Part shown: in pieces, positions 35,514 through 46,843 of the stretch | How positions within the stretch are numbered: the stretch's first letter is position 1 | Layout of the letters: the number at the start of each line of letters is the position of its first letter | Source: Podarcis gaigeae | Lineage: Eukaryota | Reading direction: 5' to 3' (one strand) | Assembly: GCA_964106915.2 (NCBI GenBank) | Contig: OZ066916.1 | Length of the DNA stretch: 64,000 nt | The notes under the pieces: model-generated | Database searches by the model: none | Seen by the model: the letters and a program-made list of their open reading frames with translations, nothing else | What the model was told of the DNA's origin: nothing | Translations under genes and position numbers: made by a program

Positions 35514-36361
35514 GTCCAAAGTGAGCAGCTATCTGTAGTTAATGCTTGTAATGTAAGTGAGGCGAAGTAACTCAGTTCACAGAATAAATATAGTAATGTT
35601 GGTGTGCATGTCTGTAGCTCAGTCCGTGTTAAGTAGACCAGGAATTGATTTCTCAAAAGTCTTGACAGAATGCAAAAAGATCACACTTGTGGATCATAAA
35701 CTTTGGGTTGCCATGGGCAAGATAAAGTTACTAACAAATTTAATACATGATAATTTTTTTTTTAAAAAAAAAGAAACTTCATTCATTGGTAAAGTTAATT
35801 TAGAGATGTGTGAAGTTAGTCAGTTTGAAAGTGTCAGTCACAACTGTCAAACAATTTGCAAGTTAAAGTTGCCTGTTGTGACATTTCCAGGATATGCTGC
35901 AGACTAAAGATTTTCAAGTTGTGGCCAGCTTTTTGAATAATGCAGACAATTTCAGCTGAGTGCTAGAAGACAGTAGCTGATATCCAATTGTTACAGCCAG
36001 CTTGTGCAACAGCCATTCTGCTGCCAGGAGGCCCTAGTTTACCGCAACAGCCAAATTCAATTGACGTCTTGTACTTGTGAAATATGTTGTGCAACCCCTA
36101 GCACAACTTCTGTAGTTTTTATTATTATACTTGGTGACAGTTAAGCCTATGTGCATAGTTAAGCCTATACAGGACAGGGGAAAGGGAGTGAGGAATGTCA
36201 GGAGTTCAGCCTACACTCGAGTAGGAGTGTAGGCTCTAACAAAGAAGTCCCATTGCACAAGCAGAGGTTGTTCCACTCACACTTAGTTAAATATGCTCCT
36301 CAGACTTTAAATTGAGGAGCATGGACGAAATCAAAAGGTACCAATGTGAAAGGAGCAATAA

Positions 36362-37915
36362 CACTGGGCAACAATTTTTTACTTTTTGAATGTTGTCTAG
36401 ATTTCTACAAATGATTTAGGGTATTTTTGCACTGCTGAATCAGGAAATGGCATCTGTTTCTCTCCATTAGGTCAGGTTTTTGTGCTATGTTGATTTGAAA
36501 AAAAATCAGATCTTGTGACAAAATCAATTACATTTTTATGGCATTATCAGCTGCTTTTTGTCAACACATATCATCCTAGATATGTTTTTAAGAGAAAAAA
36601 ATGTTTTTCCAACAACATATATTGATTACCTGATCGAAACATCAATTACTGTAAACTGAATGGTGGCCATTGATAAAGGTAAGTACACGTAAATTTTCAA
36701 ACTTCAGGGCTTGAACTTCCGTTTCTTGGAACTCCTGGAATGCTCACCAGCAGGGAGGTCTCTGTCTTCAGAGTCCAACAGTAGTCAGCCATCATGACTG
36801 CGTCCCAGTGACCCTGATACCTGATCTCCATCTCTTTCATGTCCTGATGGAATCTCTCCCCCTGATTGTCACTCATTGAACCCAGGTTCTCAGGAAACCG
36901 GTCCATATGTGAAAATAGGTAGTACATCTTGACGCTCATGTTGCAGCCCAGGTTTCTGAAAGCAGTCAGCATGTTGTTGACAAGTTCTGCGTAGTTTCTG
37001 GCCTTATTGTTGCCAAGAAAGTTCTTCACTACCGGAACAAATGCCTTCCACGCTTCCAGTTCCACTTCGTTCATTGAGTTTCCGAACTCTGGATCTCTGA
37101 TGAGCTGACGGATCTGAGGACCGTCAAAGATGCCAGCTTTCAACTTCTCCATGGTCAATCCTGGAAAAGCCTGGCACAAGTAAGTGAAGCAGTCACCATC
37201 CTTGTCCAGAGCCTTGGTGAACTGCTTGATTAAGCCGAACTTGATGTGCAGCGGTGGGAAGAGTATTCTGTCTCTGCCACCAGAGGGTCGTTGATGACGT
37301 TCCTTTTTCTGCAAGGCACCAATTTCTCCCGCACAGGCCAGTCCTTCTTCATGTAATGCTGAGCACGATCCCTACTCTCCCACATGCACAGAAAACATGG
37401 GTTGGTGAAGCCAGACTGTTGTCCCAACAAAAAGTTCACCATCTTCAGGTCAACACAAATAAACCACTTATGCTGATCATAACCAATTTTCTCCAGCACA
37501 TACTTCACCGCTTCATAGTTCTCCTTCAGTGTACTTGAGTGAGCCAGGGGTTTTGATCCCCCAACTGTATGCTTTGCCGCACCAATTTATGGAAGATTTC
37601 GAGGTTTTATGACTTCAAACTGATCCCTTTTCGACATAATCACCCAGAACTATCGAACCTGAATACTTCTTGTCATTAAAATAATCATTTCCAATCAAAA
37701 CAATTATTCGACATGGCATTTTACCCCCACCAACTTCTTCTAAAATGCTCCACACAAGCGTACATATGAACAAAATATTTAAAAAATGACATGTGGCCAT
37801 AACTCAAAAACTTGACTTGATTGAGCAAAACCAATGTGATTTTTGGATTCAGCACATCAGATTCGTCCTAAATCAGCTGAAAAAACGCAGACAACAAATT
37901 TGTTGTTGACCAGTG
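36362..37915 (-). mobile_element. Internally deleted Chapaev(3)-type DNA transposon, 1554 bp
   Basis: TIRs CACTGGGCAACAA / CACTGGTCAACAA (12/13 match). TAA on both flanks (36359-61 and 37916-18) is consistent with a 3-bp TWA TSD. About 120 bp of subterminal inverted homology. Carries the C-terminal half of a transposase on the - strand. Confidence 0.9.
36697..37550 (-). pseudogene. Chapaev/Transib/RAG1-like DDE transposase remnant (C-terminal part only, frameshifted)
   Basis: Motifs PLAHSSTLKENYE, WFICVDLK, GQQSGFT-PCFLCMW-SR, ILFPPLHIKFGL-KQF-KAL, KLKAGIFDGPQIR, MS-K--YLFSH-D-FPENLG--SD-QGERFHQD and WDAVMMADYCW. An apparent 1-bp deletion near 37277 splits ORFs 37230..37508 and 36697..37314. 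The N-terminal part is missing. Confidence 0.88.
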
Positions 37916-40900
37916 TAATGAATTCTGCATTACACTAGATTTTATATTTCACAGTAGGAAGCAGATTAAAGATGCAATCATAACTGCTTATCTGGGAGTG
38001 AGCCCCATTGAATTCAATGGGACATTGGAGTAAATATGGTTAGGATTGCAGCCTTAGCACCTATAAGTTGCCCCTAGAAACAAAGTCAACTCTCAATCAA
38101 CACTGCTGAAGAAAGAAAAGCAATGGAGCTCCTTATGGGACAGCAGGAATTATATATGATTGAATATGTAAACAGTAAAGCAATTTACATCTCTATTTGC
38201 ATATAATGTCCACTTGTTTAGAAAAGCATTTATATAAGAATCCATGTCAGCTCAATGGTCCATTTTCATCAGATTCCTCCAACATTCTTAATCTCATCCA
38301 GTGGCATGGCTACAATATATTTGTTTGGGCCAATTAAATGGGTAAGTGGTTTTTATGGGGTGGTGGTCCTGTAGACCATTCTGTGCTGCTTGGAAGAAAG
38401 TCAGGATAAAAAATAAATAAGTGTTGAATTCTTTCTAGCAGACTTCACATGAAAGTTGTAATGTTTAAATTGGCCCTCAGAGGCATTGTTGAAGAACTAT
38501 AGCCAGTCATATGAAACCTTTGTTTTTGCAGTGTTTCATATTGCAACTTTATTGGCTCACCCTCTGTGGGTTTGCACGCTTTTCAGGTTTGTCCAAAACG
38601 TTAGATATGAACGAACACAGATTCCAGTAAAAGTGCATGTTACTTGCCAAAACTCACCTAGCTTCACTGTAAAACCTCCGAAGAGGTTGCCATAATTACT
38701 ATATCCCTTATCTTCCTGGCATATACTGAGACCCACTGATCTTTTCCCAACAACTTCTTTGGAGGAGAGTTTTTTTTTTAATGGTGTGGTTTTCTGAACA
38801 TAATATACAGTACTTTATGGTTTATTATTCTCAACCAAAATGTCATTTTTGTCATAAAGCTGTTCTTCATCTTAAAGTTTTTTCCGTCCAGGCAACATAG
38901 ATCATAATTATTTACTGGAATATTTCATCTTAAAATATTCTTCCTTTAGTGTGAACAATAGGTATAAAAATAGACTTCATTGTAGATTAATTTTACTGGT
39001 ACATAAAGCCTTTGGTGAATGACATTAAACTGATACTAATTCTAGGCTAGTTTCTATGTGGATTTTGATGCTCCTAAACTATTGGTCCAGTTCAGACATC
39101 ATGGCCTCTGACTCACATGGCCTCTGACTTTGGTCTCCTGTTCCCTCCTACAGTTGCTTGTTTACAATAGCTATAGTTAATTTTACTTACAAGTCAGGGC
39201 TGAGAAGCTAAGATCAAGCACAGTGAGGCATGGTCTAGTAGCAGGGTCTTGAGGTCAAACACAGCAGAGTGGTTCGAGGGTAGACAGGATTCCAAAAGCA
39301 AGGTATTAGCAAGGGTTGGTGGTAGCAGGTCAGTCAGGATAGGAGCAATAAGCTGGCTTGCCCAAAACTAAGGACTAGTGTTCTTCAAGAAACTAAGAGT
39401 TTATGTATCTGGTCACCCAAATCGGCTGCAACTGATTAGCCTAGCCTTCCAAGTTCCCTGCTCCCATATAGGCCCTTATTCCTGAGAAGTCCCATTCTTA
39501 CAAACCTAGAGTGGGGGTTGAATGAACCTGGGAAGAAGCTAAGTTCATTCAAATAGTGCCTGAATATATCACTGATAGTTTGTGCAGTTTGCACTTCATC
39601 CTGTGACCATTCAAACTAGGGAACTACTTTTTTTTTTAAAAAAAGGATGAAAATCAACATACAGTTTTTGTATGTTATGGTTTTTTGGACAAAAAATCCC
39701 TACATTGTTCCTGATCCCAGTAGTTGTACAGCTCCTTCTCTTCCATTATAATCACCTGGTGTGCCCCCCACCCATGAACATAATGTTTTAGTTGTGGCAT
39801 AAGTATTCCATCTTTTGACTTCTTGATCTGTATATAGACATGACAGAAAGGACCTCCATTCACTTTTAATGGAGCAAGATGGTTTTAAAGCAAGATGTAA
39901 TACAACAGACCTTTGCCTCAAATACAGCTTTTGTAATGAGTGCTTTGAGTTCTGCCGAACAAAGATTTTGTATCCATTTATTTCTTTGCTTCACATAAAG
40001 ACTTTCCTTCATTGATGGAGGAGCGGGAAAGCCTGTGAGGATTCAACATTGTTGAGTGTGTATTGTAATATATTTACTGTAGAGAGGAAACATAACATTT
40101 GTGCTGTTTAAAGAAGCCTTCAGTTTCTGTGAGCTCCCTTATTACATGTTTTAGAATTTTGAGGGAATATTTTAAAGAGCTTTAAAACTCTTGTTGACTC
40201 CAGTTGAAGAGATGATGCCAAAGACTGCTTTGACTGCTTTGTTTTCCATGAGCTAAGTTTAAAGTTAATAGGTTAAATCCAGTTGTGTCTCTCTACTGGC
40301 AGAAGGCTATTTGATGCAGTAGAAACGTCCTTGAGTAGAAAGGTAGAAGAGACTGTTTTTAGAAATTTCACCTTTCTTCTACAGACCCCTCTGTGACACC
40401 TCTCACACTGTTCGAATCTAAGGGGTCCCACCTTATAGGGGTGCAGAGAGCAGCAGATGTAAGGGGGAATCAGCAAAAATAATCTCTTCCCATTTTCTCC
40501 TCATGGAAACCTCCAGTAGATCAAAGAGCCTTCCACCAACCATTGGATGCAACCATATTTCATTAAGTGTTTCAACTTGCCAACCATTTTAGCAAATTCT
40601 TCAGCTGCTTGCAAGGATTTTTGGACACAAGTGTTGACAATAGTTCTGTTCTGTTGTGAAATTGCTTAATTGGGATAGTAATTTTAGTCCACTAGATGGA
40701 TGATTTCATCTGCTTGTTTTAGAAGCTATTTGATTGCCTCTAATTCCACATTAGTTACTTCGCATGGTTGCTTTTGGTGCCTGCATGTAATGATGCCACT
40801 TGGAAACAACAATGGTTGAATCCTCTATAGGCAGATTCATCCATTTCTCTAGTTTTCTAAACTGAACTGTGAATTGGGTACATTGCTGAATGGCAGCAGT

Positions 40901-44015: not shown

Positions 44016-44809
44016 TATTTAAAATAGCAGCTAAAACTGGAGGCTGGCATTTCATTTTAAGCACATAGTGGGAGTGCTTGTTGTCAGTTCTTAAAGCGAA
44101 TGCTCAATGTTATTTAATTTCCTTTAAAATCACAAGATAGAACTTGTAAGGCATGACTGAGTTAAAAGTTTACGGAAGAAGGAAAAAGAAATAGACATAA
44201 TGTAACCGGGCTTGCATATGAACCTATTATGAAGATACTATGACAATACCAATCTAGATCTTTATTTGTTAATGTACAAAGGGCACGGGGAAGGAATTAT
44301 ATATGTTCTGTGTTTCTTATTCTAGAATGTGAAGAATGAGAGGAAAGGGATCTAATGTTTCCATTTCAGTGAAAAGTCTGCTTAATTGGGAACACTTTTT
44401 CAAAGTATAGGAGCAACAAGGAAGACATGCCACCACAGCCTGCAATGCACAGTACTCACCCTAGCTATATTTTCTTAAGGTCCTTCCTTGTTTCACCCCT
44501 ATGTTTCTACTTCCCCACTCTTTTCAACCCTGCTTCTGGTGTTGCAGGATGATTATGCAGCTGCAGTCCCCACCCCCACCTCCCAAAATATCCTGCCTTC
44601 TCCTGTCCACCACATATCCTCAGTGAAGCAAGTCCACCACTTTCAGAAATCCTTATCTGCAGAAAACCAGTATTGAATAATAGATAGGGAATCCTCCATT
44701 TGTGTCTTGCACTGTTTGGGTTATTTCATTTAATGAGATTTTCCAGCAAGCTGTTTCTCTGAATCCAAGGTTGTAACTTTATTTTCCTCTGTTACATTGT
44801 TTTGTCTAG

Positions 44810-45137
44810 GAAACTACTCCAGACAGCCAACGTACTCTGGGGTGACCAACACGAGTTACAGTGGCCCAGGACCTGGTATGGGTATAAATGCCAGCAGCCA
44901 GATGCATGGACAAGGGCCAGGCCAGCCTTGTGGTACCATACCCCTGGGACGAATGCCATCAGCTGGGATGCAGAGCAGACCGTTTCCTGGAAATATGAGC
45001 AGTATGACCCCCAATTCTCCAGGCATGTCTCAGCAGGGAGGCCCAGGGATGGGACCACCCATGCCGACTGTGAACCGTAAGGCACAGGAGGCGGCTGCAG
45101 CAGTGATGCAGGCTGCCGCAAACTCCGCCCAGAGCAG
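44810..45137 (+). CDS. ARID1B: ARID1B internal coding exon (328 nt, phase 1-2): (G)[10 protein letters not shown]...[29 protein letters not shown](R)
   Basis: TTTTGTCTAG acceptor and GTATGA donor at 45138. Contains the ARID1B signature [52 protein letters not shown]. Lies within ORF 44797..45195. Confidence 0.97.
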
Positions 45138-46843
45138 GTATGAGTCCAAAGGAAAGGTTCCAAAACCATTTAAAATGTACTTGCTTATAAAGTAAAGGAG
45201 GTTTGTGCAAAGGACAAAATGGTATAATTGTTAAAAGAAACCCAAATGACAGTGGCAGGTGTTTACCATTTCAAGACATGTTTTATATCTATGAATATAA
45301 GTATTTATAGTTCCACAGTTTTAATATGACGTAAAAAGTAAAATCCCTACAATTAACCCCTGCAATTCTGAAAGGGTAAATTTTGTACACACAGGTGTGG
45401 CATGAATTGTTGGGGAAAGGAGGGTGGAAAGAAGCACCATTGCTGGGATCGTTGTTGTCTCTTGGGCATTTGAAGTCTCCAGAACATTTTCAAAATTCAT
45501 TCGCCAATGGATATGAGCAGTTGTGGGCAGGGGCCACCCTTTTTAAAGCTAACCAGAATATCTAATTTATAACTGCTGTTCTGAGGTGGAGACTGAAATA
45601 TGGATTATTAATCTCTAGTCTTGTGGTTTTTGCAGTACAGGAAGCATCTTCCTCAGGTCTTGAGTTAGCACCATAAATTTACACTCCATAGCTAATATGT
45701 GCAGCCAACTATCCCTGGGATGATATCTCCAAGACCCTTAAGGGAGAATACCTGGTCACTGGATTGCAGTATGTGCCTGCAGTTCTAAAAACCTGTGGAA
45801 ACGCAAATAGCATCTTTCCTTGTGCTGCCTATGGCAGCCATGGGGAACACATGCTCTCACGTTTCTTGAGATCATGTTGTGTTTCTCTGTTTCATAGTGT
45901 TGAAATAGACAGACTTTTCCTCAGCAGAAAAATGAATTTTATTGTTTTGCAAGATGGATCTATATGCATGTGTATATTAAGTGCATGCATATATAAAATA
46001 CATATTTATACACATTTCTACAGACATATACATTGCATTTGGTTATATAATATACCATTGATGACCTTACGCACTAATTACTCCAGATATTTTTATGTCT
46101 ATTATGCATATAAAGGAAAAGGTATACACAACTTGTTTGTACTATGGAGGATTAGGTAGACCTAAAACATCTTTTAAAACCCCCAAAATACTACTATTTT
46201 AATAGGATAAAATCACATTACCTTTCTAAATTACTGACCTGGGCTCCTGTGAAATTCAGTAGATCAACAGGTTTTATGCATTTTTTTGTTTTGGTTTGAG
46301 CAATTGGTATTTTACAAACATAAAAGCAATATAATTAATTTTAAACATTAATAATTGCCAGTAAAATAGAGTGCATGGTTGCAATTCACATTATGAATTT
46401 GGATAAAGAATTTCATATTTGATTTAAACACACAAACATAATACCCGTAGGTTGCTTTCCCACTTGAAGCCTAACTCTCAAATCTATTTTGTAGACTTAC
46501 TTTTCAGTTGCTGTATCTCCATAATCAAAACACAACATTTCAAAACCTCTTCATCACATTGTGCGCCCCAGGTAATCTAACACCTGTAGGAAGATTATGA
46601 AGTCATTAGACCTTAATTGCAAAAGGAACATTAGGAAGCAACTTGTGGGATGAATCCCTTTTTATCCAAGAGGTTTGGAAGCACAGCATTTTTCTCCTTG
46701 GTTCCTAATGGAAAGCTATATGGCTATTTGCCCAACAGTAAGAATCCTACATGCTTCAGTATGGAAGGATTGTAGCTGACGAGGTGGTTCATGCTTGTGA
46801 TCCAATACAAATCCAAAGAAGCTGTTCTTTTGTTCTGCTTTAG

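Follow-up and report, generated by a model that had tools for sequence, protein, structure and literature searches.

We analyzed a window of 64,000 nucleotides from Podarcis gaigeae and found that positions 36362 to 37915 represent a copy of a young Chapaev3 DNA transposon with an internal deletion; its two ends carry the same array of sequence blocks at distances from the terminus that differ by 10 bp. This offset is not a private indel of the copy, the refuting explanation named beforehand in the initial annotation of this DNA, but the norm of its family throughout the genome and of the wider group across families. Judging from the sequences of these ends, we hold, at moderate odds, that the transposase pairs and cuts one long with one short end, which would follow the same principle as the 12/23 rule, with neither nonamer nor RAG2 involved.

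The element starts with CAC at 36362, ends with GTG at 37915, and is flanked on both sides by TAA, in the context A-TAA at the left and TAA-T at the right (Table 1). The initial annotation had described CAC tips followed by four blocks with equal gaps at both ends, and base positions confirm this: the blocks start at bases 30, 51, 72, and 110 from the left terminus and at bases 20, 41, 62, and 100 from the right one, with gaps of 13, 12, and 29 bp at either end and a left-right offset of 10 bp. At this offset, the inner regions of the two ends are 67% identical without gaps, compared to a mean of 35% and a maximum of 45.5% in a random control (2,973 window pairs). Each end is composed of a 12-bp terminal repeat, an A/T linker, and an array of ∼100 bp with a period of 21 bp (autocorrelation z of 5.4 at lag 21, the top of 62 lags), which begins at base 20 at the short end and at base 30 at the long end; the linkers of the window copy are 7 and 17 bp long, respectively. 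The spacers had earlier been given as 22 and 12 bp; the 10-bp difference between them is real, while the figures themselves arise from counting the heptamer alone. The 21-bp units of the array are likely binding sites of the transposase. Given that the transposase fragments of the window copy lie on the minus strand, its right (short) end is the 5' end of the element. Bases 1 to 337 and 365 to 1554 of the window element align to bases 1 to 337 and 1040 to 2246 of a full-length copy (L072; 2,246 bp, mostly transposase open reading frame [ORF]), showing that it has lost ∼700 bp, including protein residues 1 to 272 and, with them, the first putative catalytic Asp; it is also frameshifted. An open frame at window positions 44737 to 45195 (plus strand) resembles what we take to be an exon of ARID1B, and the transposon probably lies in an intron of this gene.

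Table 1. Features of the Chapaev3 copy and its flanks (positions in the window)
Feature	Position	Strand	Remark
Left target-site duplication TAA, preceded by A	36359..36361	.	TWA between A and T is a Chapaev3 signature (PMC4079192)
12-bp terminal repeat, 3' (long) end	36362..36373	+	Conserved across families
17-bp A/T-rich linker, long end	36374..36390	+	10 bp more than at the other end
Inner array, long end	36391..36490	+	21-bp units from 36391, 36412, 36433, 36454, 36475
Transposase gene remnant	36697..37559	-	Frameshifted; matches full-length relative P0002 over residues 273-540 in two frames
Junction of the ∼700-bp internal deletion	37551..37579	.	Putative N-terminal Chapa domain and core start gone
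Inner array, 5' (short) end	37797..37896	-	21-bp units from base 20 off the terminus
7-bp linker, short end	37897..37903	-
12-bp terminal repeat, 5' (short) end	37904..37915	-
Right target-site duplication TAA, followed by T	37916..37918	.

Chapaev3 elements are defined by CAC/GTG ends, a TWA target duplication between A and T, and the transposase motifs C(2)C, LH, and H(4)H (PMC4079192, PMC3014272). Both the CAC...GTG termini and the 3-bp TWA duplication between A and T are present in our family, and regular expressions for the three motifs matched 95, 100, and 83 of 101 homologues, respectively. The homologues also share invariant D255, D309, and E505 (P0002 numbering), which we infer from their conservation to be the catalytic DDE residues. 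In its ends and duplication the family is like Merrow, Garfield, and Conan (PMC4079192) and Chapaev3-1_AC and -2_AC (PMC3014272), with which it also shares a transposase of ∼556 amino acids containing these motifs, a length of 2.1 to 3.1 kb, and a patchy spread consistent with horizontal transfer. By their printed termini, it looks separate from Merrow, Garfield, Conan, and the anole families; elsewhere in our tree, L100 and L101 have termini that by eye resemble those of Conan in Fig. S6 of PMC4079192. The label of the class differs among authors, from Transib superfamily (PMC4411706) to CMC (PMC4079192) and a joint CMCT clade (PMC12730594).

The claim of the initial annotation that the transposase is related to RAG1 was borne out at the level of the predicted fold. 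A structure model of the relative P0002 (pLDDT 84) comprises an N-terminal zinc domain, a disordered acidic linker (residues 144 to 162), and a core (residues 166 to 552). This core is predicted to be closest to Transib and RAG1, with a Z score of 17.4 to HzTransib (root mean square deviation [rmsd] 3.8, 350 aligned residues) and of 16.6 to RAG1 460-1008 (rmsd 3.7 to 3.9, 364 to 368 aligned residues) versus 10.6 to the P element and 8.7 to Hermes; the Foldseek E value is 2.7e-7, at 10 to 14% sequence identity. In a sequence search of PDB chains, a profile of the 101 proteins found nothing below an E value of 0.5, and Pfam gave no real match on the window fragments. The N-terminal Cys/His domain is predicted as a separate unit (pLDDT 92), for which Pfam reported a weak zf-AD match in 25 of 53 proteins and RAG1_imp_bd in 2 of 53. 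In a fold search, its top six matches were ZADs, the likeness being weak (best Z 5.5, rmsd 1.6, 61 aligned residues); none of the matches listed was a RAG1 NBD or NZD chain, which does not imply their exclusion. ZADs dimerize, and a complex prediction for two N-terminal domains with zinc, in which no alignment was used, scored 0.00 and weighs neither way. The ZAD-like character predicted for this domain fits the description of the Chapa domain, which a preprint ties together with the RAG1 N-terminal zinc domain and the ZAD (bioRxiv 2026.01.24.700457). Unlike RAG, RAGL, and Transib elements, the family shows neither the nonamer-binding motif GRP[RK] nor the CCGHC tail motif (0 of 101 proteins each), no RAG2-like gene was found within the full-length 2,246-bp copy, and in place of the 5-bp target duplication that is canonical for Transib and RAGL, with exceptions among Transibs (bioRxiv 2026.08.26.747230), we saw the 3-bp TWA.

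In the 1.51-Gb assembly of P. gaigeae, exact 21-base end patterns matched 153 long and 215 short ends, and exact patterns with the linkers swapped, one joining a short-type tip to a long linker and one a long-type tip to a short linker, had 0 matches each. On the six contigs covered in full by both end searches, which carry 75 long and 92 short ends, each of the 52 inward-facing pairs no more than 10 kb apart joined a long to a short end, which is weak evidence for a pairing rule, since simple descent predicts the same; 22 of these 52 paired copies belong to a size class of 1.88 to 1.94 kb. End lengths were read in 30 loci picked by their ORF alone and not by their ends, whose median divergence from the majority line was 1.7%; several genomic copies retain frames of more than 500 codons. 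Among 28 long ends, 19 have the array starting at base 30, and among 24 short ends, 22 have it starting at base 20; the difference in spacing, which the initial annotation had asked to be checked, is fixed among the copies. The remaining long ends were found at 31, 31, 32, 32, 23, and 35 (a terminal duplication), with one misplaced and two unplaced. Length changes in these dead copies amount, across 28 long ends, to five indels in linkers or runs plus one terminal duplication at ∼1.7% divergence, and part of the run-length changes may be assembly errors. A matching target duplication flanks 14 of the 20 ORF-picked copies with two ends. When the genome was searched with a homologue of 59% identity, the matchable places belonged to the same family as the window element. 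A subfamily comprising 19 of the 30 loci (including L063, L064, and L066; range L061 to L090) lacks element bases 119 to 284 from the long end, of which it keeps only the first 118 bp. Given that this subfamily spread well, the required long end is no longer than 118 bp.

Spacing in related Chapaev3-like families, a check that had been suggested at the outset, yielded the same offset. A protein search retrieved 2,411 relatives, the named ones including firefly, shrimp, and leech at 74 to 79% identity as well as Helobdella matches at 65 to 74%. A metagenome scan added 462 relatives, of which the best 80 were taken further. End pairs were obtained for 26 of these, including one (L148) that was dropped as false because it had neither a target duplication nor an array; the 54 loci that gave no end pair were mostly short contigs or had decayed ends. 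In 20 of the remaining 25 loci, the best ungapped offset is exactly 10 bp, with the 3' end being the long one in 16 (+10) and the 5' end in 4 (-10). The offsets of the others are +7 in L102, +8 in L152, +14 in L125, and -2 in L163; L134 has +10 at its first blocks and a further 5-bp indel deeper in the array. Together with our own family, the 25 loci form 24 clusters at 80% protein identity and are 39 to 85% identical in pairwise comparisons (median, 50%); since these families share ancestry, 20 of 25 does not equal 20 independent events. A profile built from 20 elements was then applied to 122 held-out ends and placed 36 of them, 28 at bases 19 to 21 or 29 to 31 and none at 22 to 26; the other ends were at 14, 14, 17, 27, 28, 28, 32, and 32. 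Leave-one-out placement put 20 of 20 elements at 20/30, but as these had been picked beforehand for their 10-bp offset, all that this demonstrates is a shared absolute register. One metagenome contig (L091) is 86% identical in DNA to L072 over 1.87 kb, and this likeness, together with the invertebrate relatives, suggests a recent horizontal transfer, a process known for the group; a search of viral contigs found no relatives.

The composition of the ends indicates which of their properties are kept. The 12-bp terminal repeat is conserved across families, and the first array unit is family specific yet common to both ends (78% identity within versus 38% between elements), indicating that the two ends of an element coevolve but seldom equalize. 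The long linker has an A/T content of 71 to 100% in all 20 elements listed, and its sequence identity between families is 53%; nonetheless, its length is kept, while the neighboring noncoding lengths from terminus to ORF range widely, from 363 to 1,233 and from 185 to 484 bp. Selection very probably acts on the length of the linker.

In 9 loci, the long end is the 5' one; in all others, it is the 3' one. In a quick tree of 42 of 52 rows (rows shorter than 300 amino acids and two near-duplicates were left out), the 5'-long elements appear as a grade nested among the 3'-long ones, with two changes of polarity by parsimony, one of which is forced by starred branches. All four flipped elements with two ends still carry one end of each type. 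The best natural test case against strict pairing is L163 (L163:2483-4739), both of whose ends are long type and which is flanked by a matching TTA duplication. Its ends are 84% alike over 231 bp, reaching the ORF tail, and ∼215 bp of the 3' arm are copied in the 5' arm. The element may have moved in this form, or one arm may have been converted after insertion. Contigs of four runs aligned to L163 show a multicopy family, whose 5' linker is unreadable from these contigs because the two arms are alike. In Fig. S6 of PMC4079192, read by eye, Merrow_PM and Merrow_LC have consensus ends that are short type at both sides (20-21 and 20), Merrow_TO and Merrow_LF have 30/20 and 29/20, and in Garfield and Conan the A/T-rich 5' end is the longer one. 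Since the lamprey Merrow consensus sequences were built after gap removal (PMC4079192), the equal ends of Merrow_PM and Merrow_LC may be an artifact. L163 and the lamprey consensus sequences are the reason why we place the pairing rule at no more than moderate odds.

If long and short ends are indeed paired, the core would hold the 12-bp terminal repeats, while the 21-bp-phased array would be bound by additional subunits or by the N-terminal Chapa (ZAD-like) domains on their tethers. That the Chapa domain itself is the array reader is a tentative assignment that we consider possible. Shifted by 10 bp, the array would face almost the same side of the helix at a greater distance, altering the reach, and a complex that is asymmetric and has its A/T linker bent would accommodate only a long end together with a short one. 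RAG uses its NBD dimer to read 12 and 23 in a like manner (PMC10462144), and a comparable asymmetric reading has been proposed for the P element (PMC7776569). Activity was lost when the ends of Hermes (bioRxiv 2022.09.16.508221) or piggyBat (PMC11707139) were made symmetric. The switches of polarity likely stem from recombination between the two inverted arrays, which would invert the interior.

Alternatively, each end type could be selected for its own length, e.g., if one of them nucleates the complex, with same-type pairs transposing as well and the asymmetry tuning efficiency. The long+long L163 with its target duplication, the short+short consensus ends of Merrow_PM and Merrow_LC, and the activity of engineered piggyBac on symmetrized ends (PMC11707139) speak for this explanation, which we nevertheless find rather doubtful: just 1 of 25 two-ended loci is symmetric despite coevolving ends, the ∼215-bp arm copy of L163 extends into the ORF tail as expected of a conversion after insertion, and the same Fig. 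S6 contains the unequal Merrow_TO and Merrow_LF. A role of the long A/T linker in transcription or as the target of a host factor (HMG-type bending, a promoter, or 3'-end formation) instead of pairing is improbable, as the occurrence of the long end on either side of the element disallows a promoter or poly(A) role; the consistently high A/T content of the linker and the use of HMG proteins by RAG (PMC8355894) would fit such a function, and a role of the linker in DNA bending is compatible with long+short pairing.

A functionless 10-bp indel, acquired once and inherited by all families, would agree with their common ancestry and with the conservation of the gaps within the array. This frozen accident is largely refuted and very improbable, considering that the linker consists of slippage-prone runs whose length shifts in dead copies within ∼2% divergence, that its sequence but not its length has turned over between families, and that flanking noncoding lengths drift freely. 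The chance that the ends are true homologues of recombination signal sequences (RSSs), with heptamer, 12/22 spacer, and nonamer, as the initial annotation had hinted, is slighter still. In favor of such homology, the ends have CAC tips and differ by 10 bp, the core is predicted to be RAG1-like, and PflRAGL-A has a 10-bp asymmetry (PMC10462144); at the sequence level, however, the homology is refuted, given that the repeat is 12 bp long with a heptamer of CACTGG.., block 1 varies by family, no nonamer stands at the end of the spacer, GRP[RK] is absent from the 101 proteins, and the duplication is 3 bp. Whether the asymmetry has a deep common origin is a question apart from RSS homology. The inverted nonamer complement at 36475, already suspected of being a coincidence, was rejected as a chance match: the 9-mer occurs four times on both strands of the 64-kb window, and it is cut off in the 19 of 30 ORF-picked copies that still spread.

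Asymmetry of about one helical turn is in print for the P element, whose spacers of 9 and 21 bp have already been compared to 12/23 (PMC7776569), for some Transibs (12/23; PMC8355894), and for PflRAGL-A (10 bp; PMC10462144). With the 12/23 RSSs of RAG1/2, with PflRAGL-A, and with Transib5 and the Anopheles Transibs (PMC8355894), our family has in common the predicted core fold, the CAC tips, and ends about one turn apart, but its distal element is a ∼100-bp phased array, in contrast to the 9-mer of the RAG RSS. Like the P element (PMC7776569), it combines a terminal repeat with a likely internal binding site and is predicted to carry an N-terminal zinc domain on a mobile tether; the P element differs by its remoter fold (Z 10.6), its dependence on GTP, its single 10-bp site, a difference of 12 bp, and an 8-bp duplication. 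Hermes (bioRxiv 2022.09.16.508221) and piggyBat (PMC11707139) likewise require a left end together with a right end in cells, and their accessory zinc domains bind subterminal sites asymmetrically, but their ends are unlike in site sequence and arrangement, without a clean one-turn shift of a shared array. For Chapaev3, the ∼100-bp array and the 20/30 offset are undescribed in the published accounts as far as accessible, even though Fig. S6 of PMC4079192 shows Merrow_TO at 30/20. The terms "asymmetr" and "subterminal" have no match in the main text of PMC4079192, the accessible parts of PMC3630058, PMC6004678, and bioRxiv 2026.08.26.747230 contain nothing on end asymmetry in Chapaev3, and no account of it was found in the literature searched, a scope that ended short of Repbase Reports.

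Asymmetric ends were previously available from scattered Transib and RAGL elements, whereas here a large and widespread group with a RAG1-like core has an offset of exactly 10 bp over about two dozen divergent families. Since Chapaev3 has this offset without nonamer, NBD motif, or RAG2, the design may either predate RAG-like elements or have arisen again on the same fold. The origin of the 12/23 rule is debated between a RAGL-A transposon (PMC10462144) and a Transib seed (PMC8355894). We consider it unlikely, but worth stating, that the whole Chapaev/Transib/RAG lineage inherited one-turn asymmetry and obligatory long+short pairing from its common ancestor and that Chapaev3 enforces this pairing with a single protein, via the Chapa domain on a phased array; as part of this same unlikely scenario, that domain and the N-terminal zinc domain of RAG1 would be homologues, and the Chapa domain on its array would stand in for NBD, nonamer, and RAG2. 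If true, the 12/23 rule would go back to a property of transposons, with the domains that read it being exchangeable. Given that the family is young and retains frames of more than 500 codons, a single-protein system for reading one helical turn is within reach, and the end architecture needed would be informative for building Chapaev3 vectors.

Several individual loci have features of their own. Small terminal duplications are present at the tips of L062 and L081, and L085 has a 7-bp linker deletion with an intact target duplication. A lone 223-bp short-end fragment (L006:1246-1467) is followed, 37 bp further on, by a complete long+short copy whose long end has the same orientation, and is perhaps the product of a local hop or an aborted transposition. 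The 5' ends of L107 and L134 share a deletion of ∼5 bp (half a turn) in the short-end array relative to L120; if this subfamily was amplified, the inner phasing would be less strict than it appears. In L094 and L101, one tip departs from the CACTGG pattern (CACAAAG and CACAGCC, respectively) while the other is normal; the odd tip of L094 is the heptamer called the commonest in Ig loci (PMC8355894), probably by chance.
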